A stretch of 64,000 bases of DNA from Patescibacteria group bacterium (GTDB taxonomy: Bacteria > Patescibacteriota > Minisyncoccia > Phycocordibacterales > Phycocordibacteraceae), in assembly GCA_029260935.1 (NCBI GenBank), contig JAJDCJ010000012.1, forward strand, positions 33,315-97,314, read 5' to 3'. Of this stretch, positions 4,549-63,521 are shown one piece after another; the first letter of the stretch is position 1; each line of letters opens with the position of its first letter. The translations under genes were made by a program, and so were the position numbers. The notes under the pieces were generated by a model. The model made no database searches and was not told where the DNA came from. It saw nothing but the letters and a program-made list of their open reading frames with translations.

Positions 4549-5298
4549 TCACGAACCCTTTTCTTCTTTTTTGTTTTCTTTTTCTTTTTCGCTTATTTCT
4601 TTTATTTTTTCTGCTTCTTTTTCAACTTGTTTATCTGCGGTTCGTGCCGTTTTTTCAGCAATATTTCGTTTGACATAAAGGTTCATCAGTGAAAATACCA
4701 CCATACTGGCAAAAACAACACCAACAATGTTTACAAAAAGAAACACAGAAGCGCCAATTACTACATCCCAATTAAGTGCAGCAAGTCCTACACCCATTGA
4801 AGCAACCGGCGGAATAATAGCCACAGCAACGGCAATACCCGGCAATGTCGCACTCAACTCAGGTTTAATCAGTGTGTAGGCAACGGCAAAACCTGCAACT
4901 ATAGCGATTGCAACCGATACAAGTGTTGTGTGTGTGCGCAATAACACTTCGGGGGTAATAGTGTCACCAATTCCGAAAAATAGCGCCGCTAAAAATGAAG
5001 CGAGTAATCCAAGAATAAGCGCCTTTGCAAGTGTCCTGGTTGCGCGAGCAATAAGAACATAATCACTCATTACGACCGAAAGTGAGAGTGAGAGTATAGG
5101 AAATAAAATGGGAGCAATCAGCATACTGCCGATGACTACCGCGGGGCTATTTTCAAGCACACCGAATGTTGCCATAAGCACTGATAAAATAACAAGGAAA
5201 AAGAAATCAAAGTTCGGTGTTGATGCTTCAATTAACTTTTTTACTGCAACTGATTTGTCATGCTCTGATATTGCGCGAATGTGATTAAGAAAACCCAT
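4549..5298 (-). CDS. DUF389-like integral membrane protein with K/E-rich C-terminal tail
   Basis: Multiple TM helices and a charged tail EKEAEKIKEISEKEKENKKEEKGS. Confidence 0.4.
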   Translation of the reverse strand: MGFLNHIRAISEHDKSVAVKKLIEASTPNFDFFFLVILSVLMATFGVLENSPAVVIGSMLIAPILFPILSLSLSVVMSDYVLIARATRTLAKALILGLLASFLAALFFGIGDTITPEVLLRTHTTLVSVAIAIVAGFAVAYTLIKPELSATLPGIAVAVAIIPPVASMGVGLAALNWDVVIGASVFLFVNIVGVVFASMVVFSLMNLYVKRNIAEKTARTADKQVEKEAEKIKEISEKEKENKKEEKGS

Positions 5299-5328
5299 GT
5301 ATATCTGTAGTTATTTTAAAAAACTTTT

Positions 5329-5796
5329 CTATAGAGCATGATTTTCAACAACATCTTGGATACGGGTATTTTTTGTGCGCTCAAGGTAGAAAAGCCCTAT
5401 TGATAATAAGAATAGCATAGTTGAGAAAAGCAGTGAGAGGAGGCAATATTGACAGTACGCGTTGATAATAAATGCCTGAAGATAGAGGAAATATAGTGAG
5501 AGTATGAAGCCCGGAATGGTGAAAAAAAGGAAAAGTTGTGCCAGGTGAAGTTTTTTGTCTGAAAAACCCCATAGAGCAAAACCAAATATCGCTGAATAGA
5601 AAAAGACACCAAAAATGGCAAGAGGAATTCCAAAAACGCGCGAATAAGAACTTGCAGCAACCAAGTCGCATCCCTGAACAAAGTTACACACTGGAGAAAT
5701 ACCCGCAAGTGCGGTGTAGGCAAGGTACCCCGCGTCTATAATCCCAAGAAAACTAAAAAGGGTAAGGCCTGAGAAAATCCATATACGCGTATTCAT
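5329..5796 (-). CDS. vitamin K epoxide reductase (VKOR)-family membrane thiol oxidoreductase
   Basis: 4-TM protein with CNFVQGC and CQYC motif pairs typical of VKOR/DsbB-type proteins. Confidence 0.55.
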   Translation of the reverse strand: MNTRIWIFSGLTLFSFLGIIDAGYLAYTALAGISPVCNFVQGCDLVAASSYSRVFGIPLAIFGVFFYSAIFGFALWGFSDKKLHLAQLFLFFTIPGFILSLYFLYLQAFIINAYCQYCLLSLLFSTMLFLLSIGLFYLERTKNTRIQDVVENHAL

Positions 5797-5841
5797 GGGT
5801 TCAAGTATACTGTAAAAAAAATTTTATAAACTCCCCTTTTA

Positions 5842-6258
5842 ATGTTTTGTAGGTATACTATATGTATGGACAAAAAACCACCTAACGAAGAAGAATTAAA
5901 GGCAAAACTCACTGAGGAAGAGTATGCAGTACTTCGCGGTGGAGGAACAGAAGCGCCGTTTAGCGGAGCGCATCTTAATGTAGAAGGAGACGGTATTTTT
6001 CAGTGTAAAGTGTGCGACAACCAACTGTTTGCAACTGGTACAAAATTTGACTCCGGTACAGGGTGGCCAAGTTTTGATAGTGCTATTCCTGGCGCTGTTA
6101 CCATACTGAGAGATACGTCCCATGGCATGGAGCGCTCTGAGGTAGTATGTGCACAATGTAATTCACACCTCGGTCATGTGTTTGATGACGGCCCAACCAC
6201 GACCGGAAAACGTTATTGTATAAACTCAGTCTGTCTCAATGTAGAAGAGAAAAAATAA
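5842..6258 (+). CDS. msrB: peptide-methionine (R)-S-oxide reductase MsrB
   Basis: CxxC...CxxC zinc motif plus GTGWPSF and RYCINS catalytic-region motifs. Confidence 0.85.
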   Translation: MFCRYTICMDKKPPNEEELKAKLTEEEYAVLRGGGTEAPFSGAHLNVEGDGIFQCKVCDNQLFATGTKFDSGTGWPSFDSAIPGAVTILRDTSHGMERSEVVCAQCNSHLGHVFDDGPTTTGKRYCINSVCLNVEEKK

Positions 6259-6287
6259 CTTCTTTAGTTACGGTCTTTATATAGAGA

Positions 6288-8066
6288 TTATTTTCCTTTT
6301 GCACGTGATGATTCGTTGAGAACCTTTTTACGTAACCTAACGTTGTGTGGAGTAATTTCCAAATACTCATCTTCACTCATTATTTCCATACCACGCTCAA
6401 TGGTAAGTTCCCACGCAGGAGTCAGTTGTATAGCGTCATCATTTCCTGAGGATCGTACGTTGGTGAGGTTTTTTCCTTTAGTAGGATTGGCAACCATTTC
6501 TTCTCCTTTTGAAGTGTTCCCAATTACCTGACCTTCATACACTTCAGTTGCTGGAGGAATATAGATTACACCGCGGTCTTGTAAGTTCCACAAAGCATAG
6601 CCAAGTGCTTTTCCTGTTGCCATTGAGGTCATTGATCCCACTTGGCGCTTTTTAATTTCGCCCACAAACGGCTTAAATCCAATAACGCGACTTGAGAGTA
6701 TTCCATCTCCTTTCGTATCCACCACAAACTGGTTTTTATATCCTAAAAGACCTCGTGTTGGGCCTTCTAGCGTAATACGTACAGCATTGGTTCCTTCAGT
6801 GCGCATATCTTTCATTTGAAAACCACGTCTTCCTAATTTTTCAATAACCGTTCCCTGAAACTCAGCAGGCGTATCAATAATAACCTCTTCAAATGGCTCA
6901 GTTTTCTTTCCATCCTCTTCTCGTATAATCACGCGCGGTTGAGAAATCTGCATTTCATACCCTTCTCGGCGCATATTCTCCAAAAGTACTGCAATATGTA
7001 ATTCTCCACGACCTGAAACGTCAAACATATCGGGGCTTGTGAAATTAATTTTAAGTCCCACGTTTACTTCAAGTTCTTTCTCCAAACGCTCGCGTAGCTG
7101 GCGACTCGTTACAAATTTTCCATCACGCCCGGCAAGAGGAGAATTATTTACTAAAAAGTTTAATGTAATGGTAGGCTCATCAACGGCAATTGCAGGAAGC
7201 GCCTCTGTTGCCTGGTTAACACTCACCGTCTCACCAATAAAAATATCAGGGAGCCCTGCCAGCATGACAATGTCACCAGCTACTACTTCCTCAACTTCTA
7301 CTTTTTCAAGCCCTTTAAAGTTAAACATTTTTGTAACTTTTCCCTGTCTAATTTTTCCATCCATATCTTTTATAAAAACAGTAGATTGTGGAGAGAGCGT
7401 TCCGTCGTACACCCTACCAACTGCTAACCTACCAAGGAAATTGTCGTACCCGAGGTTAAACGGCTGGAAACGAAATGTCTTATCAACTGAACCAGACGCA
7501 GGAGGCACTTTTTCCAAAATCATATCCAAAAGAGGTGTGAGGTCTTTTGAGTCATCGCTCAAGTTTTTCTTTGCAACACCATCTCTCCCTATTGCATAGA
7601 TGACTGGAAAACTAGACTGCTCATTAGTCGCACCTAATTCCAAAAAGAGCTCTAGCACCTGTTCTTCTGCACGGTCAGGATCAGCAGCCGGTTTGTCAAT
7701 TTTATTTAAAATAACAATCGGTTTGAGCCCAAGCTCCAGTGATTTTTTTAATACAAAACGAGTCTGTGGCATCGGACCTTCTTGGGCATCAACAACGAGC
7801 AATACTGAGTCAATTGAACGTAAGACCCGCTCCACTTCACTACCAAAGTCGGCGTGCCCTGGTGTGTCAACGATATTGATCTTTGCGTCCTTATAGTTAA
7901 GTGAGCCGTTTTTTGCATAGATAGTAATACCGCGCTCTTTTTCAATAGAATCGGTGTCCATGGAAAAACCTTCTGCAACCATGCCGGTCTGGCGCATCAA
8001 AGCATCGGTAATAGTTGTTTTACCATGGTCAACGTGAGCAATAATTGCGATATTATACGTTTTCAT
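6288..8066 (-). CDS. typA: translational GTPase TypA/BipA
   Basis: NIAIIAHVDHGKTT G1 motif, DTPGHADF G3 motif, length 592 aa. Confidence 0.9.
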   Translation of the reverse strand: MKTYNIAIIAHVDHGKTTITDALMRQTGMVAEGFSMDTDSIEKERGITIYAKNGSLNYKDAKINIVDTPGHADFGSEVERVLRSIDSVLLVVDAQEGPMPQTRFVLKKSLELGLKPIVILNKIDKPAADPDRAEEQVLELFLELGATNEQSSFPVIYAIGRDGVAKKNLSDDSKDLTPLLDMILEKVPPASGSVDKTFRFQPFNLGYDNFLGRLAVGRVYDGTLSPQSTVFIKDMDGKIRQGKVTKMFNFKGLEKVEVEEVVAGDIVMLAGLPDIFIGETVSVNQATEALPAIAVDEPTITLNFLVNNSPLAGRDGKFVTSRQLRERLEKELEVNVGLKINFTSPDMFDVSGRGELHIAVLLENMRREGYEMQISQPRVIIREEDGKKTEPFEEVIIDTPAEFQGTVIEKLGRRGFQMKDMRTEGTNAVRITLEGPTRGLLGYKNQFVVDTKGDGILSSRVIGFKPFVGEIKKRQVGSMTSMATGKALGYALWNLQDRGVIYIPPATEVYEGQVIGNTSKGEEMVANPTKGKNLTNVRSSGNDDAIQLTPAWELTIERGMEIMSEDEYLEITPHNVRLRKKVLNESSRAKGK

Positions 8067-15679: not shown

Positions 15680-15780
15680 ATCTTTTATTCTATCGCAACC
15701 ACCATATTTATATAGTAAGTTGCCTGCAACGCTCTTCGAGCGCACGAGATCGCTATATTCCTCGAGCTAGCTCGATTTGG
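15680..15780 (-). promoter_or_regulatory. conserved 5' flank/promoter of cassette locus A (homologous to 43350-43447)
   Basis: Shares TTGCGATAG(A/T)ATAAAA(G/A)AT immediately before the ATG, plus CTCGTGCGCTCGA and GAGCTAGC blocks, with locus B. Confidence 0.7.
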
Positions 15781-15935
15781 CTGGGGGACAGGGACTCGAA
15801 CCCCGATTGATGGCACCAGAAACCATAGTCCTACCGACAAGCGAGTGAGGGTCACAGGAAAGTTTACTTTCATATGACCGAACGAGCGCAGTCGGAAAGC
15901 TTTGCTTACCACTGGACGATCCCCCAAGGCGTTAG
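15781..15935 (-). tRNA. tRNA-Gln(CUG) interrupted in the D-loop by an 81-nt insertion
   Basis: The exons fold into a canonical 74-nt tRNA with U1-A72, G73, D-arm GUCC/GGAC, anticodon loop UUCUGGU and T-loop UUCGAGU. The insert starts AGCAAAGCUU. Confidence 0.6.
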
Positions 15936-20931: not shown

Positions 20932-21022
20932 AACAGACTTTTTTGGGTAAGATACTGAGGTGTTGGGGTACGTAAAACTTTCCTTGGCACTACTCAGACA
21001 AAGTCAGTAGTGTGCCGTTGTA

Positions 21023-21157
21023 AGCAAAGCTTGCACCGGCGGCGTTCTAACAAAATATACTCACGGGCGGTTTTGTTCTTTCAGAAAAATGTAAACGAGC
21101 TTTCATTTTTCTTCTATCACAAAACCACGCGCTTCGCGCAATTTCCGTGAGCAACTT
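21023..21157 (+). mobile_element. about 135-nt inserted element beginning AGCAAAGCTT, flanked by a 9-bp duplication of the tRNA-Thr 5' end
   Basis: GCCGTTGTA occurs at 21014-21022 and again as the first 9 nt of the tRNA at 21158-21166. Confidence 0.5.
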
Positions 21158-21387: not shown

Positions 21388-21762
21388 TCATATCTTTTTA
21401 GTGAAAAATTGTAATATCAATAATACAGCGAAAAAAAACGGTACAGTAACTAAAAATTGCTGGGCGTTATATTGCCTTTGCAAGACAGGCGAGTCCAATA
21501 TAACTTGAGCATGCTCCAGGTAATTATTTTTAATAATAAAATAACCGGAGTAAATACTCAAAGGTAAGTAATTAATACCTATCCCAATAAGCCAGAAGCC
21601 CATTGCGGTGGTTAGTAAGTGTGAATTCCCAAGAAGAAAATAACTTAATGCAAAAGAACCAAAACTCCCTACTAAAAACTCAGTGAAAATTAACCACTTA
21701 TTATTGACACTCATGTCGAAAGCAACGAGTTTACTTATGTTAAGTGAAGACATTAACATCAA
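21388..21762 (-). CDS. integral membrane protein, unknown
   Basis: 124 aa, three or four hydrophobic helices. Confidence 0.35.
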   Translation of the reverse strand: MMLMSSLNISKLVAFDMSVNNKWLIFTEFLVGSFGSFALSYFLLGNSHLLTTAMGFWLIGIGINYLPLSIYSGYFIIKNNYLEHAQVILDSPVLQRQYNAQQFLVTVPFFFAVLLILQFFTKKI

Positions 21763-21878
21763 CTATACCAATTCTACCGTCCCCCAGTATGTCCTATCGG
21801 GGGGGTGCTTTTTATTCTTATTTTCCACAATCATCTGTTACCCCCCCCTATAGACACTGGATGTCCATGGGGGATTCA

Positions 21879-21931
21879 GCCACGTAAAAGTAAATATGGA
21901 CACGCCGTGTCCATATTTACTTTTACGTGGC
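21879..21931. repeat. 53-bp perfect palindrome
   Basis: GCCACGTAAAAGTAAATATGGACACG / CGTGTCCATATTTACTTTTACGTGGC; its 27-bp core recurs at 44164-44196. Confidence 0.9.
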
Positions 21932-21932
21932 T

Positions 21933-22090
21933 CTCCGGCGAAGCCGGACCCAGCTCCGCCGGGCGGTCCGCATATGTAAGCAAAGCTTCCTCTCATCGAT
22001 CACTCGGAAGAGTAACCGCATTCACTCTTCCCTCGCTTCTCTCGATAGTAAAGAAAAACAGTACGCAGGTACTGTTTGTTCTTTCATATG
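21933..22090. repeat. repeat-family copy: GCTCCGCCGGGC motif, GTAAGCAAAGCTT, internal hairpins, ending at the tRNA-Asp 3' end
   Basis: Shares GCTCCGCCGGGC and GTAAGCAAAGC with the 48786-49225 array, and TTTGTTCTTTCA with 21023-21157. Confidence 0.6.
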
Positions 22091-22165
22091 CGCGGCCGAC
22101 CGGACTCGAACCGGCAACCTCCCGCGTGACAGGCGGGTGCTACTAACCAATTGAGCTACGGCCGC
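22091..22165 (-). tRNA. tRNA-Asp(GUC)
   Basis: Anticodon loop CUGUCAC, T-loop UUCGAGU, acceptor GCGGCCG/CGGCCGC. Confidence 0.8.
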
Positions 22166-22850
22166 ATTTCGGATACAGAGTATGTATTGCCTTCGAAAAT
22201 AGCTCGTATTTCCTTGGTAAATACAGTTCTGTATTAGGGCTAGTATGATACATCAGCTTGTAAAGTGCAAGACTATCGCGATGACTAAAAACAAGTTCAA
22301 AGCCTCGCTTCTTGTACTTTTCTAAAACAAATCCCCTATTCAGACCATTTTCTCTAAGAGTACTAAAGAGTGTTAGAAGAAATTTTTGAGATCCTGACGT
22401 GAATCTGCTTGTAAATACCCAACGTTTTTTGTTTCGATCTTTAGCAAAATATTTTTTAAAATGAACGCTGCCGTCGCCATCAAAATATCCCCTGACGAAA
22501 TGATGTAAATATCCTTGAGGGACTTTTGGGAAACAGATTGTTTTGCTTTTGTTTTGAGTGAAACCAAGTTTTATCAAATCAGAGAACCATTCTCTACTTC
22601 CAAACTGCACGCGATACTGTTGCTTCCATTTTTCGTTCCTTTGAGGACGTTCCGAAATTTTCTGAGTTCCTCCGACAATCTTCCGTAATTTTTGAAGCAA
22701 AATTTTGTCTGTAGATGTAAATTCAATATAGTGTCCTCCTCTTTTATTCTCAATCATTGAACCGTCTGCGGCAAAATACCCCAATACATACGCCATGTCT
22801 GATGTCCACGTTTTGAAAAAGTCTTGGTTTAGCTTCTTTTTTATTGGCAC
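22143..22850 (-). CDS. double-motif LAGLIDADG homing-endonuclease-family protein, free-standing, directly 5' of tRNA-Asp
   Basis: Two motifs, VLGYFAADGSM and VRGYFDGDGSV, spaced about 100 aa apart; the 3' end overlaps the tRNA 5' region by about 23 nt. Confidence 0.7.
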   Translation of the reverse strand: MPIKKKLNQDFFKTWTSDMAYVLGYFAADGSMIENKRGGHYIEFTSTDKILLQKLRKIVGGTQKISERPQRNEKWKQQYRVQFGSREWFSDLIKLGFTQNKSKTICFPKVPQGYLHHFVRGYFDGDGSVHFKKYFAKDRNKKRWVFTSRFTSGSQKFLLTLFSTLRENGLNRGFVLEKYKKRGFELVFSHRDSLALYKLMYHTSPNTELYLPRKYELFSKAIHTLYPKCGRSSIG

Positions 22851-22888
22851 TTTATAAGTATACCGTGACAGGATATCTATCTAACCAC

Positions 22889-23833
22889 TTATACCAACCC
22901 AAACAACTTGGCGCTGAACAAAAGATAGGCAAGCAGGTAGAAGGCGCCTTCCCAGGTATGAATTTTCTTTGATATGCCGGAAATTATGAAAAAGAATGTA
23001 GTTGCAAGAAGCATAGGAAGCGCTATTGTCACCGTTGCGGTGTCTAGTGTTTGAGTGCCAAACAAACCAGAAATTCCAACAACCAAAAGAAGGTTGAAAA
23101 TGTTTGAGCCAAATATGTTACCGATGGCAACTTCTGCATTATGATTCAGTGCGGCTTTTACCGAAACAATCAACTCCGGAAGTGACGTACCGACTGCAAC
23201 TGCAAGAATAGTCATCACACCCACTGAAATACCAACCATTGCCGAAAGCCCAAGTACTGAATCAATCAAATAATTAGCACCTCCAATGAGTGCAATAAAC
23301 CCAACGATAAGTATTGCCCAATCCAAGAGAGCCACTTTAGGCCGTTTTTCTAGTGGTTCAAGCGCTTTAGTACTTCCTTCTCTATGAAAGAGCGAGTAGA
23401 GAACATAGACAACAACACCTGCCAAAAGAAAGAACGACTCAGGGGTGGTAATAACACCGTCATATGCGGTGCCAAAAAAATAGAGCGTTGCCAGTGTCAA
23501 CAGTGGAAGCTCTAAGTCAATGAGGTTCCGTGTTACAGCCAGCGTTCCTTTTGCAACAATCGCGGCAATACCGATAACTAGCAAGATGTTGGCGATGTTT
23601 GAACCAATAGCGTTTGCCGCAGGAATTTCGGTGACTCCCTGCAACATACCAACAATTGACGACGCCAACTCCGGCGCACTGGTGCCGAGTCCGACAATTA
23701 AAACACCGACTACAAACGGTGACATGCCGAGCGAAAGCCCTATTTTCTCTGCACTATCAAGCACCCAGTCAGCACCCTTAACGAGAGCTACGAGTGAGAA
23801 CACGAAAATACCTACCAGAATCAAAAGTTCCAT
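22889..23833 (-). CDS. Ca2+/cation antiporter (CaCA family, YrbG-like)
   Basis: Two alpha-repeat motifs, GLGTSAPELASS and GTSLPELIVS. Confidence 0.8.
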   Translation of the reverse strand: MELLILVGIFVFSLVALVKGADWVLDSAEKIGLSLGMSPFVVGVLIVGLGTSAPELASSIVGMLQGVTEIPAANAIGSNIANILLVIGIAAIVAKGTLAVTRNLIDLELPLLTLATLYFFGTAYDGVITTPESFFLLAGVVVYVLYSLFHREGSTKALEPLEKRPKVALLDWAILIVGFIALIGGANYLIDSVLGLSAMVGISVGVMTILAVAVGTSLPELIVSVKAALNHNAEVAIGNIFGSNIFNLLLVVGISGLFGTQTLDTATVTIALPMLLATTFFFIISGISKKIHTWEGAFYLLAYLLFSAKLFGLV

Positions 23834-23853: not shown

Positions 23854-24123
23854 CTAACCGGAACGTTTTGAAAAATAGATAATGACATCTCTGAAGGAAA
23901 AGAGGAACCATATGGCGTTGAGGATGAGGAACGGGACACTATCCAAAAGATACGCGTAAACAATAAGCACTCCGCTTCCGAGGGCATTTCCCGAGTCATA
24001 CCAAATGTTATCAATGGAAACCACCTTAAATTGGTTGAGCAGGAAAAAAATCAAAATAATCGCTGCGCCTAAAGTGCCGATTATTGTTATGATGTCCATA
24101 TAACCGTTAGTATACCCCCACAC
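23854..24123 (-). CDS. small membrane protein, unknown
   Basis: 89 aa, two TM helices. Confidence 0.3.
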   Translation of the reverse strand: MWGYTNGYMDIITIIGTLGAAIILIFFLLNQFKVVSIDNIWYDSGNALGSGVLIVYAYLLDSVPFLILNAIWFLFSFRDVIIYFSKRSG

Positions 24124-24161
24124 TCACTTTTTAATAAAAATGGGTGTGGGTGGTCTAGCAT

Positions 24162-24401
24162 TTATTTGGTAGGTCCCTTGGTACTGCCATGCCCACGACA
24201 CCCTTCGCATTTTTTAAATAGGTCTTCTACGAACCAACCGCCACGATTTCCGCAATGTTGACACCCTCCACCTTCACACTTCCTACATATATGCCACGAT
24301 TTTCCATACCCAGACCCCTTACATTTTGTACAAATAGTAGGATCAAAATCTTTTTTGTATTGAGTTTCAAACATATGGTGCCGACGGCAGGAATTGGTCA
24401 C
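24162..24401 (-). CDS. small DnaJ-type zinc-finger protein (four CxxCxGxG repeats); likely start MFETQYKK
   Basis: CTKCKGSG, CRKCEGGG, CQHCGNRG, CEGCRGHG; the annotated N-terminus overlaps the tRNA-Met-derived repeat. Confidence 0.55.
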   Translation of the reverse strand: MTNSCRRHHMFETQYKKDFDPTICTKCKGSGYGKSWHICRKCEGGGCQHCGNRGGWFVEDLFKKCEGCRGHGSTKGPTK

Positions 24402-24768
24402 CCGTCGCTAACCATTTTACTTCATAAACTCGTAAAATGCTAATCGCGCTCCACCCCGACTCGGCAACGTGTGCTCCGCCACGGCTTCGCACCCTCTGTC
24501 TTTCAATTCCTTCCGTCTTGTTCAAATTGTAAAAAATACTATGCATGCGCATAGTATTTAACAATTTGTGCCGACGGCAGGAATTGGTCAGGAGTCCATG
24601 AAAATTAGAGTCACTGCCGTTCCTTAATTTTCTATGGCTCACGACCCTGGCTCGGCGACAAGCACTCGTCGTACCTCCTCGTCTTGTATACCGCCTCCGC
24701 CTTTCAATTCCTGTCAATCAGGCACATTGTAAAAAACACCATACTCAAACGTATGATGTTTTACAATG
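24367..24768. repeat. two tandem about-200-bp units, each ending with a copy of the tRNA-Met 3' end (GTGCCGACGGCAGGAATTG)
   Basis: The 19-mer occurs at 24367, 24568 and 24768 (the last is the tRNA itself). The units share CTCGGC, CTTTCAATTCCT and TTGTAAAAAA blocks. Confidence 0.8.
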
Positions 24769-24844
24769 TGTGCCGACGGCAGGAATTGAACCTGCGACCT
24801 TAGCTTTATGAGTGCTACGCTCTAACCAACTGAGCTACGCCGGC
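24769..24844 (-). tRNA. tRNA-Met(CAU) elongator-type (could be the k2C Ile2 species)
   Basis: Acceptor GCCGGCG/CGUCGGC, anticodon loop CUCAUAA, T-loop UUCAAUU. Confidence 0.75.
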
Positions 24845-24896
24845 AAACGAGGAAGATAATGGAAGTGCGGAGCAATTACATTATTTCCGAGTGCAG

Positions 24897-25070
24897 CCGA
24901 CGCAAGCTCCGCTTACGCCGGCAAACTGCTTACGAGGATAGCGCGAAGCGCGTGTTTTTGCGAGTGAAGAAAAACAGAAGCTTGTTTATGTTTTTCTGAG
25001 AGAGCAAAAAAACTCGAAAGCGTATTCTGTCAGAGTGGGCCCGACGCAAGCTCCGCTTACGCCGGCAAAC
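24897..25070. repeat. two copies of a 30-nt acceptor-stem minihelix repeat CCGACGCAAGCTCCGCTTACGCCGGCAAAC
   Basis: Copies at 24897-24926 and 25041-25070. Read on the minus strand they give GCCGGCG-UAAGCGGAGCUUG-CGUCGGC, reproducing the tRNA-Met acceptor stem. Confidence 0.75.
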
Positions 25071-25121
25071 TCTTTCAGTTCTCAAAAAATACCATTTTTT
25101 GATGGAAAAAGAAATAAAAAA

Positions 25122-25450
25122 TGTTGCGGGGCCCAGAATCGAACTGGGGTCTGGAGGTTCTTTTACACTCAATGTTTCCAAAGAGAATGGACTATACCAT
25201 GGTCCACGTGGGACCCTCCCATTATAGTCTCTGAACCTTCCGAGCTATATCAAACGATATGGCTTGGCTTGGCTGCTGATTACCGAATCAACTTGCTTTT
25301 TAAACCATCGCACTCACCCTCTCAGGTCATGCTGTGGTGCAAGAAGCTCTAACGGCTTTCCAGCAATTTAGAGAGTTTTCCACCGTCTGTTGCCAAACGG
25401 GGTCACGTTCTTCACATGAGCCTCCCGAGGTACCTCTCCTCTACCCCGCG
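25122..25450 (-). ncRNA. about 330-nt structured RNA with tRNA-like T-arm and acceptor end; possible tmRNA (ssrA), unconfirmed
   Basis: 3' end CCCAGUUCGAUUCUGGG-CCCCGCA-A-CA pairs with 5' CGCGGGG. The region has no ORF and smpB is present in the window. There is no G3-U70 pair and no classic tag. Confidence 0.35.
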
Positions 25451-43447: not shown

Positions 43448-43468
43448 GGCGGAGACGCAGGGATTCGG
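43448..43468. repeat. partial copy of the tRNA-Ser 3' end (GCGGAGACGCAGGGATTCGG)
   Basis: Matches 43641-43661, the tRNA T-arm and acceptor, at 20 of 21 positions. Confidence 0.75.
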
Positions 43469-43639
43469 TCACCTTTACTAAGTATTTTACTCCTCTCGTT
43501 CGTAAAACACTAAGTGACGCGACCCCGTCGGCTACTACTGCGTATTCTCGCAGGCTTCGCAGTAGCCTCTTTTCGAATCCCTCATCGTCCGTAGAATGTA
43601 CAAGCCAAAATGCTATTCGCATCAGGGCTTACCATTTTA

Positions 43640-43728
43640 TGCGGAGACGGAGGGATTCGAACCCTCGAGGGGTATTACCCCCTGGCACATTAGCAGCGTG
43701 CTGGTTTCAACCACTCACCCACGTCTCC
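43640..43728 (-). tRNA. tRNA-Ser(GCU), class II with long variable arm
   Basis: Acceptor GGAGACG/CGUCUCC, D-arm GGU/ACC with loop GAGUGGUUGAA, anticodon loop CUGCUAA, variable arm CAGGGGGUAAUACCCCUCG, T-loop UUCGAAU. Confidence 0.8.
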
Positions 43729-43895: not shown

Positions 43896-44075
43896 TTATT
43901 TCTCCCAGTCCTCAATAATCAGTTTCTTCCCTGACTTCCGTATGACAAGTTTCTGATGTTCTTGCCACCTCAGTGCCCGCACATACTCAATAGGGAGCGT
44001 AACGCCATAGCTGGTACCTCCTGCCATTTTGCTGAGTTTGCGAATGTTATGATCTTCAATTCTATTTCTAGACAT
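43896..44075 (-). CDS. unannotated 59-aa AbrB/MazE (swapped-hairpin) family DNA-binding protein
   Basis: Translation MSRNRIEDHNIRKLSKMAGGTSYGVTLPIEYVRALRWQEHQKLVIRKSGKKLIIEDWEK is not in the ORF track because it is under 60 aa. It matches the AbrB/MazE pattern (S.gvtiPke....lg...gd.l.i...g..i.i.p). Confidence 0.55.
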   Translation of the reverse strand: MSRNRIEDHNIRKLSKMAGGTSYGVTLPIEYVRALRWQEHQKLVIRKSGKKLIIEDWEK

Positions 44076-44085
44076 AACGGTATAG

Positions 44086-44196
44086 TAGCACAGTACCTAC
44101 GTATATAAATACGTATTTATATACGTAGGTGTTGTAAGAAACAAAAACCCTTTCACACACTAGTTGAAATATGGACACGGCGTGTCCATATTTCAA
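44086..44196. promoter_or_regulatory. divergent intergenic region with two perfect palindromes
   Basis: Palindrome 1 (44086-44119): CCTACGTATATAAATACG/CGTATTTATATACGTAGG. Palindrome 2 (44164-44196): TTGAAATATGGACACG/CGTGTCCATATTTCAA. Both lie between the AbrB-like gene and zwf. Confidence 0.7.
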
Positions 44197-48713: not shown

Positions 48714-48742
48714 ACGGCTCAACCTTGATTGAGCCGTTTATT
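48712..48742 (+). terminator. hairpin AAACGGCTCAACCTTGATTGAGCCGTTT after recG
   Basis: Inverted repeat followed by a T-rich tail. Confidence 0.6.
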
Positions 48743-48785
48743 CATACCAACTGACCCTTCTGCAAGATGGCAGTGTGTAGGCTTG

Positions 48786-49225
48786 TTTGTCGTCACAAGT
48801 AATTTTCCTGACGGAAAATTTTCGCGCGACCAATTTCTCTTATGAGTCAGACGAATTAGAGAAATGGAAGTACTCCTGTGGTGACCCCGGCTCGCCCGGC
48901 TCCGCCGGGCTGCGCCTCTCGGACATGTACGCGAAAACGCCAAGCAGTTGGCTTACGTGTCGTCACAGATAATCCTTCGTCGCCACTCAGGATTTCCGCG
49001 ACCCCGGCTCGTGGTTTTTCCTGCTGGAAAAACATCACTGCGCCTCGGACAAACGCACAAAAACCTGCCGCAGGGCAGGTCTTTGTGTACTTGTCGTCAC
49101 AAGTTGCTAAGTATTTTAGAGCGCTTCGCTTCTAGAATACTAAGCACTCGCGACCCCGGCTCGCCCGGCTCCGCCGGGCTGCGCCTCTCGAACCAGCGCC
49201 GTAAGCAAAGCAGTTTGCTTACTAA
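48786..49225. repeat. tandem array of three composite repeat units (130-170 nt each)
   Basis: Each unit is TGTCGTCACARRT, a unit-specific palindromic hairpin, CGCGACCCCGGCTCG, a second hairpin (CCCGGCTCCGCCGGG in units 1 and 3), CTGCGCCTC(T)CG, then a variable tail. Unit 3 ends with GTAAGCAAAGCAGTTTGCTTAC. Confidence 0.8.
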
Positions 49226-49267: not shown

Positions 49268-49345
49268 TGGTCCGCCCTCTTGGACTCGAACCAAGAAACC
49301 TTCTAGGTATAAGCTAGATGCTCTAACCAATTGAGCTAAGGGCGG
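49268..49345 (-). tRNA. tRNA-Ile(UAU)
   Basis: Acceptor CCGCCCU/AGGGCGG, D-arm GCUC/GAGC, anticodon stem UCUAG/CUAGA with loop CUUAUAC, T-loop UUCGAGU, encoded CCA. Confidence 0.75.
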
Positions 49346-49352
49346 ACTTAAA

Positions 49353-50063
49353 CTATAGCGCTTTTGTGGGGTCAAACGCAACACCACCATACACCTCTCT
49401 CAATCTCGCAATACCTGCCGCAATTTTCTCGCGCAGATCTCTGTTCCTGAAATATATATTGCATGTTCCGTAACCAAAGCGTCCTTTATAGTTTTTCTGC
49501 TTCTTCGTGGTCGTTTTTTTGATATATGGTTTTCTAAAGGAAGATTTTGCAATACCCAACTCCTCTGACCAAAAAGAAATCGCTGAAGCAATGTTCATAT
49601 CTTCGTAAAGGTGTAAATAAACTTTTAGTTCGTCTTTTTTAACACCCAAAAATTCAATCCATTTAATAAAACTTTTTATCATAGCTGGGTCAGTGTTGGT
49701 GAACATGACCGTATACGGATCTGCTTTAAGCCCTTCACCCCAATAGAGGAAAAAGCCAGCGATGTATAATTCGCGCTTTGAGATTCTCCCAATATCTCTC
49801 ACTGCTAATGTATAAACATTTTGCAAGCGGGCAAGTTTTTTCTTCCGTTTTGTCTCTCTTGTTTTCTCTATGCGCTTTTCTGAATGATCACGAAGCTCTC
49901 TGATGCGTTTTTCTGACAATGGCATATCACGAAGCCATAGACTCAATGTACTTTTACTCACATTAAGTTTTTCTTTAATCTGACCATAACTCATCCCCTT
50001 TTTACGTAAGGATACTGCCTGTTCTCTGTCTTTATGTCGCGCCATAATCAAACCTTTAAACAA
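49353..50063 (-). CDS. HTH-domain protein with a single degenerate LAGLIDADG-like motif, directly 5' of tRNA-Ile
   Basis: N-terminal HTH (MSYGQIKEKLNVSKSTLSLWLRD) and LAGLIDADG-like IAGFFLYWGEGL with Glu in place of Asp. Confidence 0.45.
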   Translation of the reverse strand: MFKGLIMARHKDREQAVSLRKKGMSYGQIKEKLNVSKSTLSLWLRDMPLSEKRIRELRDHSEKRIEKTRETKRKKKLARLQNVYTLAVRDIGRISKRELYIAGFFLYWGEGLKADPYTVMFTNTDPAMIKSFIKWIEFLGVKKDELKVYLHLYEDMNIASAISFWSEELGIAKSSFRKPYIKKTTTKKQKNYKGRFGYGTCNIYFRNRDLREKIAAGIARLREVYGGVAFDPTKAL

Positions 50064-63361: not shown

Positions 63362-63394
63362 TAAAAACCTAACGCTCTCAGAATATGATTCTAT

Positions 63395-63438
63395 CCCCTA
63401 CACTAACCCTGACCGTACGGTCAGGGTTAGTGTAGGGG
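63395..63438. terminator. 44-nt perfect palindrome CCCCTACACTAACCCTGACCGTACGGTCAGGGTTAGTGTAGGGG
   Basis: Between convergent adk and cmk; bidirectional. Confidence 0.7.
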
Positions 63439-63521
63439 AAGATTGGAATGAGGTGCTTCAAGGAAATTGTCCATACAATGCCCGGTGGCACGCTAGTATC
63501 ATTACGTATATAATACCTCGT

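Follow-up and report, generated by a model that had tools for sequence, protein, structure and literature searches.

Collaborative or trans homing was described in phages for F-CphI and the psbA intron of cyanophage S-PM2, for the DNA-polymerase intron systems of T7-like phages and for mobE together with the nrdB intron of T4 (PMC3984707, PMC2988022, PMC2790892). Precedents are thereby available for a free-standing endonuclease paired with an intron that has no open reading frame (ORF); an operator which resembles the homing site also has a precedent (PMC2988022, PMC3984707). A related case is I-TevI, which represses itself via a partial copy of its homing site overlapping its own promoter (PMC2988022). 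LAGLIDADG genes of candidate phyla radiation (CPR) bacteria have been described inside rRNA insertions (PMC11270868, PMC11809585, PMC11608272), and group I introns in CPR tRNAs were mentioned only in passing (PMC8172020). Here, we analyzed a stretch of 64,000 nucleotides (the window) from a Patescibacteria group bacterium (assembly GCA_029260935.1, contig JAJDCJ010000012.1, positions 33,315 to 97,314), in which a free-standing gene with two LAGLIDADG motifs runs into the gene for tRNA-Asp(GTC). Comparison with related loci makes it fairly probable that this is an autoregulated homing endonuclease gene which targets tRNA-Asp, and whose carriers are shielded from the enzyme by an intron or by a mutation.

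As in phage collaborative homing, a free-standing endonuclease gene adjoins a gene that, in many relatives, harbors a group I intron without endonuclease. The predicted recognition sequence includes the intron insertion site, and the intron would protect its carrier and hitch-hike with the endonuclease gene. In contrast to the phage systems, the locus belongs to a Patescibacteria chromosome, the host gene encodes a tRNA and not a protein, and the enzyme, for which cleavage is predicted here, is of the LAGLIDADG type and not Endo VII-like or HNH. Furthermore, the endonuclease gene abuts its putative target gene, with distances of 17 nt to the D-loop block and 37 nt to the intron site, and a point-type variant of the target takes the place of an intron in many carriers, the window among them. 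The resemblance to I-TevI lies in a partial copy of the predicted target which overlaps the endonuclease promoter; its central region differs, which would allow binding without cutting. I-TevI is, however, a GIY-YIG enzyme encoded inside the td intron, whereas the enzyme considered here is a free-standing LAGLIDADG protein with an operator proposed on the basis of its conservation.

With the enzymes of CPR rRNA insertions the protein of the window shares the phylum, the LAGLIDADG_3 superfamily and the monomeric double-motif fold, but its gene lies neither in an intron nor in an rRNA gene and belongs to a separate sequence family. The structurally nearest protein is the archaeal rRNA-intron enzyme I-Tsp061I (2dch), and I-DmoI is also near. 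I-AniI and the bI3 maturase are likewise linked to group I introns, but they sit inside the intron that they assist, whereas the introns described here persist without the endonuclease gene in some genomes. A further homing endonuclease, cited in PMC3984707, also has its target in the anticodon region of a bacterial tRNA gene; it belongs to the PD-(D/E)XK family and is encoded within the group I intron of that gene. The enzyme of the window differs from it by its LAGLIDADG type, by being encoded outside the intron and by the tRNA concerned. The literature searched, which was incomplete, describes neither a LAGLIDADG gene standing free beside tRNA-Asp nor a group I intron in that tRNA nor an escape of the target site by D-arm changes; for this phylum it contained only LAGLIDADG genes of rRNA introns.

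The LAGLIDADG gene at tRNA-Asp

The ORF was found as the first-pass annotation had described it, with 235 aa, the motifs VLGYFAADGS and VRGYFDGDGS and a 3' end that overlaps tRNA-Asp by 23 nt. The TAG within the D-loop sequence GGTTAG serves as its stop codon. In Pfam it matches LAGLIDADG_3 with an E-value of 1.3e-13; among the NCBIfam models no curated one covers it. Residues 2-18 (LNQDFFKxW) are conserved in the alignment of homologues, and the true start is therefore the GTG at 22850 and not the internal ATG used by gene callers. As a consequence of that choice, the full-length product is absent from database records. An AlphaFold2 (AF2) model built on 32 homologues (pLDDT 88.8) consists of two alpha-beta-beta-alpha-beta-beta-alpha halves. 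The best Foldseek matches in the PDB were I-Tsp061I, the bI3 maturase (2ab5), I-AniI (1p8k) and I-DmoI, with E-values from 1e-10 to 1e-7 for I-Tsp061I, I-AniI and I-DmoI; the bI3 maturase and I-AniI are among ranks 2-4. At the level of sequence, the relation to any solved structure is marginal only.

The Asp residues which close the two motifs are invariant (D29 in 93 of 93 and D126 in 95 of 95 sequences; 32 of 32 in a smaller alignment), and the Gly next to the catalytic Asp is also invariant across all intact copies. In this superfamily a motif ends the first helix of each such domain and is closed by an acidic residue of the metal-binding active site. The protein shows three features of a two-domain LAGLIDADG enzyme, namely two motifs, the order H-E-E-H-E-E-H found twice in the AF2 model and both closing Asp. 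A loss of the catalytic acidic residues, named beforehand as an observation that would speak against a nuclease, is not the case, as both are retained in the alignment. LAGLIDADG endonucleases cleave sites of about 20 bp in a Mg2+-dependent manner and leave 4-nt 3' overhangs, and the monomeric two-domain enzymes recognise asymmetric sites. The ORF is located outside any intron or intein, between a Na/Ca-exchanger gene (tRNA-Met in relatives) and tRNA-Asp, and the intron models of Rfam did not match around it.

The nearest named relatives of the proteins in the window are found in Candidatus Kaiserbacteria and Paceibacterota. At 90% identity the endonuclease family falls into more than 1,100 clusters; identities for the best 120 are 53-68%. 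With E < 1e-30, the tRNA-Asp-linked family amounts to about 500 clusters when grouped at 50% identity, compared to about 26,000 LAGLIDADG_3-type matches overall. It is present in at least 511 species-representative genomes, all of them Patescibacteria-type metagenome-assembled genomes. The initial assumption that free-standing LAGLIDADG genes are rare in bacteria is thus untrue for this phylum. Out of 80 species-representative loci 76 were assessable, and 75 of these have tRNA-Asp(GTC) directly 3' of the endonuclease gene, which either overlaps the tRNA by 10, 15 or 23 nt or ends no more than 75 nt before it; the sole exception is L074. The typical order is one or two tRNA-Met(CAT) genes, the endonuclease gene, tRNA-Asp, often two tRNA-Thr genes, and prfB-ftsE-ftsX. 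In the window, three genes (23854-24401; Na/Ca exchanger, 22889-23833) separate tRNA-Met from the endonuclease gene. Phage relatives of the endonuclease show 27-37% identity and are not linked to a tRNA. A conserved single-copy gene unrelated to tRNA loci, a further objection considered in advance, was not found: the gene is linked to tRNA-Asp in relatives, and it is not universal.

Seven divergent loci (L042, L048, L055, L069, L077, L084 and L086) show a tighter arrangement, in which the ORF starts 2-20 nt after tRNA-Met without a promoter of its own and ends in or at tRNA-Asp, giving an mRNA punctuated by tRNAs. Release of the endonuclease mRNA would need tRNA processing in these lineages, and where the stop codon lies inside the tRNA, cleavage by RNase P would leave a non-stop mRNA. 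In the Kaiserbacteria relative L002, the region directly 3' of the same tRNA-Asp (4732-6393) is occupied by a gene for a large serine recombinase, next to which lies a restriction-modification module; this points to use of the tRNA gene by an integrated element as well.

To remove the bias that comes from sampling by protein, metagenome contigs were scanned with a pattern of the tRNA-Asp 3' exon, blind to both gene and intron. The tRNA cluster is the same in the resulting 120 loci. In this sample the distance that separates tRNA-Met from tRNA-Asp is bimodal, with 3-200 nt where no trace of the gene is seen and 709-1380 nt where the gene is present. The few intermediate spacers contain C-terminal remnants abutting the tRNA, in L103/L120 (residues 190-224), L144 and L207. 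Among relatives with about 79-80% flank identity, L183 carries gene and intron, L155 only the intron and L093 neither. Presence, absence and remnants at one position make up the pattern of a site-specific selfish insert going through invasion and decay, and not that of a core gene. Our first reading had been a conserved universal or domesticated gene, on account of the more than 1,100 homologues with identities of 53-68%, the synteny and the correlation with prfB. It was rejected because the gene-blind tRNA sample revealed many empty sites and remnants. For the same reason the domesticated tRNA-associated factor that had been proposed initially is not supported as a universal factor, since related genomes contain empty sites and decayed remnants.

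The tRNA-Asp intron and the tRNA-Asp motif

The tRNA-Asp gene is located where it had been placed from the sequence alone, and is followed by a terminator-like hairpin. Comparable hairpins follow tRNA-Met and tRNA-Ile as well as the tRNA-Asp of L004. As the ORF runs into the tRNA and the terminator comes after the tRNA, the endonuclease gene and tRNA-Asp form one compact transcription unit.

By default, ARAGORN missed tRNA-Asp in one third of the loci. In its intron mode, each of the missed genes was found to be split by 190-266 nt. The junctions are uniform (...CCTGT/AGACGTGCAGC...GTG/CACG..., with slashes at the exon borders), and the insertion lies between anticodon nucleotides 35 and 36, with a 5' exon ending in U and an intron ending in G. 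All loci tested (15 of 15 in one count, 16 of 16 in another) match the Rfam group I intron model at the relevant threshold, with 33-82 bits. The introns contain no ORF, and in all relatives the gene lies outside the intron, which is situated downstream, inside the tRNA. The search for an intron-containing allele, advised in the first-pass annotation, was therefore positive, since many relatives hold a group I intron in the adjacent tRNA-Asp. The accompanying idea of a remnant of an excised intron came close but is not right: the gene is always outside the intron, and the window represents the intron-free, variant-protected state. Its tRNA-Asp is intronless also in the intron mode of ARAGORN, so the pair of endonuclease and intron is not formed there; the equivalent insertion site lies between 22129 and 22128.

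The tRNA-Asp intron is present in 25 of about 76 species loci and in 17-19 of 25-28 metagenome carriers; about two thirds of the carriers in the species set are without it. Gene and intron were cross-tabulated in the blind sample after dereplication at 95% identity, with enough upstream sequence required to judge the gene. Under these conditions 17 carriers had the intron and 8 did not, compared to 4 and 60 of the non-carriers (odds ratio 32, Fisher p = 5e-9; raw p = 7e-10). An intron-bearing tRNA-Asp without the gene occurs in L135, L155 and L166, and with only a remnant in L103/L120. Introns which persist without the gene do not need the protein, and this counts against an obligatory maturase role.

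Splicing of a tRNA group I intron also takes place in the genome of the window, where a 256-nt intron interrupts an initiator-like tRNA-Met. In relatives, introns of group I size (179-306 nt) were also called in tRNA-Arg(GCG), tRNA-Thr(GGT), tRNA-Leu(CAA/AAG), tRNA-Cys(GCA) and tRNA-Met (L007, L008, L014, L023, L025, L029, L031, L039, L060, L079, L084, L155, L159, L166, L169, L177 and L178), and tRNA introns therefore appear to be widespread in the clade. Other intron-bearing tRNAs are also held by the non-carrier loci L093, L166 and L177. A tRNA-like gene of about 150 nt (15778-15926, minus) has the acceptor GGGGGAT...GTCCCCCAGCCA, the T-arm GGGGTTCGAGTCCCT and a large internal insert containing the GTAAGCAAAGCTT motif. 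Its assignment by ARAGORN in intron mode, as tRNA-Asp with a 51-nt intron, is doubtful.

The promoter of the endonuclease gene contains a second copy of a tRNA-Asp segment. Homologous loci have a TATAAT-like hexamer, often TGnTATAAT, which stops 6-8 nt short of the start codon, and from this closeness we infer a leaderless or near-leaderless mRNA. The TATACT box of the window was not listed by a generic promoter scan, as it has no -35 match. The putative operator next to it copies the canonical tRNA-Asp gene segment from the D-loop to the anticodon loop (GGTTAG-N9-CTGTCACG). Upstream of the gene, TGGTTAG-N9-CCTGTCACG is conserved in roughly half of the loci, with protein identities as low as about 44%; it consists of TGGTTAG, 9 variable AT-rich nt and (C)CTGTCAC(G), then often followed by an extended -10 (TGnTATAAT). 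The two blocks correspond to the D-loop (G18 G19 U U A G) and the anticodon loop of the tRNA-Asp gene, in which they are likewise 9 nt apart, and the mimic contains CCTGT/CACG, which is the intron insertion site plus 4 nt. Within the window CCTGTCAC occurs only twice, namely in the promoter element and in the anticodon loop of tRNA-Asp. CTGTCA as a generic promoter element was considered and rejected, as there are only three sites in the window, one of which (8502) shows a different architecture. The ORF next to tRNA-Ile has a similar promoter, which is not conserved among the relatives of that ORF.

The same motif is altered in the tRNA-Asp of most intronless carriers. GGTTAG-N9-CTGTCAC is the general bacterial state and is present in all three tRNA-Asp genes of E. 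coli. It is intact in 73 of 76 intronless tRNA-Asp genes of non-carriers and in 10 of 63 of carriers. Among intronless carriers with the strict promoter motif it is intact in 0 of 15, all 15 being variants (a match in L170 is an artefact); the exons of intron-bearing alleles with the strict promoter motif keep it in 9 of 10 cases. In the blind sample alone, the alteration in carriers has p = 1.5e-5 raw and 1e-4 dereplicated. In the window the spacing is 1 nt longer, and the D-stem is cut to 3 pairs (C13 x T22), with loss of the C13-G22 pair. This 1-nt insertion (GGTTAG[T/C]AGC) is shared by the window, L002, L016, L058, L076, L116, L129, L153 and L167; further variants in carriers are GGTTAA, CGGTAG, GGTGG, GGTTTAG and a change of C32 to T (CTTGTCAC). 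On the protein tree, loci with a variant and loci with the intron are intermingled, and at least 10 contrasts run in the expected direction. The canonical intronless tRNA-Asp of L144 and L207, where the gene is decayed, was either reverted or kept. With regard to the cleavage site, for which both the tRNA-Asp gene and the palindrome on its 3' side had been suggested, the comparative evidence points to recognition of the tRNA-Asp gene; the palindrome is without the motif. Classical collaborative homing, with the intron as the sole protection, was rejected: intron-bearing and intronless alleles share identical anticodon stem-loops, a contradiction which was resolved once the D-loop block was included in the comparison.

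Table. Positions of the features discussed, on the coordinates of the window
Feature	Position	Strand	Remarks
Imperfect inverted-repeat copy, TAGACA-N5-TGTCCA	21851-21867		46 bp from the centre of the palindrome; upstream of ORF 21388-21762 (minus)
Perfect palindrome, 55 bp	21878-21932		arms 21878-21904 and 21906-21932, 27 nt each, 100% complementary; 1 central base
Highly structured spacer, several perfect hairpins	21933-22055	minus	short-motif likeness only to tRNA-flanking repeats
Intrinsic-terminator-like hairpin with T-run	22056-22077	minus	directly after tRNA-Asp
tRNA-Asp(GTC), intronless	22090-22165	minus	ARAGORN; Rfam 62.2 bits
Motif copy of tRNA-Asp itself, GGTTAG-N10-CTGTCAC	22126-22148	minus	GGTTAGTAGC where the canonical form is GGTTAGAGC
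LAGLIDADG endonuclease gene, free-standing, double-motif	22143-22850	minus	235 aa, GTG start; from ORF and motifs
-10 box TATACT	22857-22862	minus	6 nt before the GTG start (22850)
Putative operator, GGTTAG-ATAGATATC-CTGTCAC	22865-22886	minus	just upstream of the -10 box; canonical 9-nt spacing
tRNA-Met(CAT)	24770-24844	minus	directly 5' of the endonuclease gene in most relatives
Initiator-like tRNA-Met(CAT), C1 x A72	25123-25450	minus	split after U36; missed by standard tRNA scans
Group I intron in initiator-like tRNA-Met, 256 nt, without ORF	25160-25415	minus	Rfam Intron_gpI 55-57 bits; ARAGORN intron mode
Second perfect palindrome, same 27-nt core	44164-44196		between MazE/AbrB-like 59-aa ORF (43896-44075, minus) and glucose-6-phosphate dehydrogenase gene
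tRNA-Ile(TAT)-linked ORF	49353-50063	minus	ends 7 nt before tRNA-Ile(TAT) 49268-49345

Palindromes, repeats and the tRNA-Ile ORF

The perfect palindrome on the 3' side of tRNA-Asp is real, but it measures 55 bp and not 53 bp as initially given. It has the core TGGACA-N5-TGTCCA, and its 27-nt core AAATATGGACACGnCGTGTCCATATTT recurs at 44167-44193 within the second perfect palindrome. The outer arms of the two differ yet stay complementary, which suggests selection for a hairpin or cruciform. An imperfect inverted-repeat copy lies close by; the number of such inverted-repeat 17-mers (2 mismatches) is in itself not above chance. The 55-bp palindrome is absent from all relatives compared and from viral contigs. 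As it is also without the conserved motif, and in view of the 17-mer count, it was rejected as the target of the nuclease. It is most likely a hairpin or operator-type element which is repeated at 44164-44196; tentatively, it may be taken as an operator or as an element resembling a repetitive extragenic palindrome (REP) hairpin upstream of ORF 21388-21762. Two more long palindromes, with 23-nt arms and no spacer, were found at 44090-44135 and 63394-63439 (91% and 100% complementary), the former directly upstream of the MazE/AbrB-like ORF 43896-44075.

The region between the palindrome and tRNA-Asp had been described as a repeat-family segment ending at the tRNA. It is structured (fold z-score of -11.9 for 21780-22095), and 21933-22089 shares the motifs GCTCCGCCGGGC and TGTAAGCAAAGCTT of 12-14 nt, and only these, with other tRNA flanks. 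However, BLASTN gave no similarity of 21933-22089 elsewhere in the window, and the core CGAGYCGGGGTYG of the repeat family is not contained in it even at 2 mismatches, so that little of the assignment holds. This core has 7 matches in the window, compared to 1.7 expected, beside tRNA-Met and tRNA-Ile, and the tRNA-flanking family is defined by its location between two hairpins, in units bounded by copies of the T-loop or 3' end of the tRNA. No Rfam model matched the palindrome, the spacer or the repeat units, even at a permissive threshold.

Structured repeat units of about 110-270 nt are located 3' of tRNA-Met, tRNA-Ile and tRNA-Ser (24400-24760, 48740-49200 and 43460-43640), each behind the terminator of the tRNA concerned. 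In several of them, copies of the T-loop or 3' end of that tRNA form the borders, and the 3' end of tRNA-Met is repeated three times with spacings of 190 and 202 nt. A copy of the unit is also found 3' of tRNA-Asp in the relative L004 (4720-4960). These units look like miniature tRNA-targeting inserts or an undescribed RNA. Short hairpins at 24880-24927, 25024-25071, 21010-21050, 21975-21990 and 49200-49225 join the acceptor-stem strands of the neighbouring tRNA with a common loop motif, GTAAGCRRAGCTTGC, and resemble acceptor-stem minihelices.

An ORF ending just before tRNA-Ile had been regarded as an arrangement matching that at tRNA-Asp. The position holds: in 4 of 4 relatives the ORF lies 5-7 nt before tRNA-Ile, between ftsH and recG. 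The protein, however, is not detectably a LAGLIDADG protein, and a second LAGLIDADG gene was rejected for this ORF (hhalign probability of 0.4%, no significant Foldseek match in the PDB). It belongs to a large Patescibacteria family with 1,611 homologues and consists of an N-terminal helix-turn-helix (HTH) and a C-terminal domain without an assigned fold, with the motif LAGLFLYWGEGTK (invariant LxGLFLYWxEGxK). Beyond the N-terminal HTH, no family was found in PDB, Pfam or NCBIfam. The ORF may be another tRNA-linked element or factor.

Proposed homing at tRNA-Asp and competing explanations

The observations on the endonuclease gene, the promoter and tRNA-Asp are best explained by a homing cycle. 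In this reading, the spacer that separates tRNA-Met from tRNA-Asp in Patescibacteria has received a homing endonuclease gene. Its protein would recognise the DNA of tRNA-Asp from the TGGTTAG block of the D-loop to the CCTGT/CACG block of the anticodon loop, 9 nt apart. The protein probably binds this segment of the tRNA-Asp gene and, given the invariant active site, cuts it. In a gene-free genome the tRNA-Asp site would be cut, and repair from the carrier allele would bring in the gene and, along with it, the neighbouring 5' half of tRNA-Asp. On the comparative evidence, a carrier must make its single tRNA-Asp gene unrecognisable, and two ways of doing so are seen: a group I intron, a route resembling collaborative or trans homing, and a slight alteration of the D-arm or of C32. 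The D-arm solution, GGTTAG-N10-CTGTCAC, is that of the window. Between the -35 region and the extended -10, the canonical motif would serve as an operator at which the protein represses its own leaderless transcript, in the manner of I-TevI. The extent of the recognition site, the autorepression and the gene conversion are proposed here from comparative patterns.

Several points weigh against this explanation. Between 8 and 10 intronless carriers keep the canonical motif (L028, L032, L035, L048, L055, L071, L080, L157 and L170; also L207, which contains a decayed remnant only). In L028 and L032 the operator has diverged, and the others are distant lineages. The identity of the endonuclease to that of the window declines in step with the identity of prfB (65/68, 54/67, 53/66, 55/56, 53/59, 50/65, 46/55, 46/55 and 42/59% for endonuclease/prfB) and local synteny is kept, so that much of the inheritance appears to be vertical. 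Near-identical loci differing only by the gene were not found, the best pair having about 80% flank identity, and the association statistics are not fully corrected for phylogeny. The intron is situated at the 3' edge of the predicted 22-bp motif, which means that the true site extends further or that the protection by the intron is partial. Finally, it is a guess that carrier and empty alleles meet in these bacteria via DNA uptake.

Among the other explanations, a domesticated splicing factor is unlikely, but fares best. The protein would then be a LAGLIDADG maturase retained by the host, which aids the small ORF-less group I introns of tRNA-Asp, initiator tRNA-Met, tRNA-Arg and other tRNAs. 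It would account for the strong association of the gene with the tRNA-Asp intron, for its location in a tRNA operon whose members often carry introns and for the intactness of nearly all copies; the bI3 maturase and I-AniI are among the closest structural matches, and the initiator-like tRNA-Met of the window holds an intron. However, the tRNA-Asp introns of L135, L155 and L166, which lack the gene, and those of L103/L120 with their remnant must splice without the protein, other intron-bearing tRNAs occur in the non-carriers L093, L166 and L177, and about two thirds of the species-set carriers have no tRNA-Asp intron that could be assisted. Maturases are normally encoded within the intron they assist, and this gene is not. 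A pure maturase would not need the two catalytic Asp, which are invariant, and the promoter copy of the tRNA motif and the D-arm variants of intronless carriers would stay unexplained. A bifunctional enzyme like I-AniI would merge the maturase role with homing.

Improbable as well is a domesticated DNA-binding regulator of the WhiA kind that does not cleave. Proteins of the WhiA type have lost the catalytic residues, contain a C-terminal HTH domain and are encoded by a universal single-copy gene in their clade. Such a protein would bind GGTTAG-N9-CTGTCAC and control its own promoter and the tRNA operon, and carriers would alter the motif in the tRNA to avoid a transcriptional roadblock and not a double-strand break. 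The conserved operator-like motif which overlaps the promoter agrees with this, tight binding alone would lead to the same avoidance of the motif in the tRNA, and the largely vertical inheritance is what would be expected of a regulator. On the other hand, every intact copy has the catalytic Asp of both motifs and the Gly beside it unchanged, neither the Pfam scan nor the AF2 model shows an additional HTH domain as in WhiA, and WhiA models were matched below their cut-offs only. Moreover, the gene is missing from many related loci, unlike the universal whiA, and its presence/absence polymorphism with remnants at one fixed site is the signature of a selfish insert and not of a core regulator.

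That the nuclease mobilises the neighbouring palindrome and repeats, with its cleavage site in one of them, was suggested by their proximity in the window and by the clustering of repeats at other tRNA genes too, but is very improbable, as the palindrome contains neither the GGTTAG nor the CTGTCAC block and is absent from every gene-carrying relative, the repeats are likewise without the predicted recognition motif, monomeric LAGLIDADG enzymes have asymmetric sites, the repeat core is not found at the flank of tRNA-Asp but at tRNA-Met, tRNA-Ile and tRNA-Ser, which have no LAGLIDADG gene, and the ORF at tRNA-Ile is unrelated.

Returning to the homing endonuclease, it is conceivable, although we hold it to be doubtful, that the endonuclease together with the changes in tRNA-Asp constitutes a gene drive of a toxin-antidote-like kind at an essential single-copy tRNA gene. 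If a near-universal segment of bacterial tRNA-Asp is recognised, each genome that acquires the gene must immunise the sole tRNA-Asp gene it has, either by a self-splicing intron as antidote or by a structurally costly change of the D-stem. The group I intron of tRNA-Asp would then be a selected immunity element and not a passive parasite, and incoming or foreign DNA might likewise have its tRNA-Asp genes cut by the enzyme.

Under the homing model, canonical tRNA-Asp genes, those of E. coli among them, should be cut by the protein, and the allele of the window itself should stay uncut. If it is correct, the endonuclease is also a compact meganuclease scaffold of 235 aa for which both a predicted target and a predicted operator are available. 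The model offers an explanation for the group I introns and the odd D-arms in the tRNA-Asp of some Patescibacteria, both of which complicate tRNA annotation. The locus would represent a natural system in which every stage of homing can be seen, from the empty site through invasion, intron partnership and escape of the target site to decay. This cycle would be displayed across hundreds of uncultured genomes, at a chromosomal tRNA gene and with a LAGLIDADG enzyme that is encoded outside the intron.

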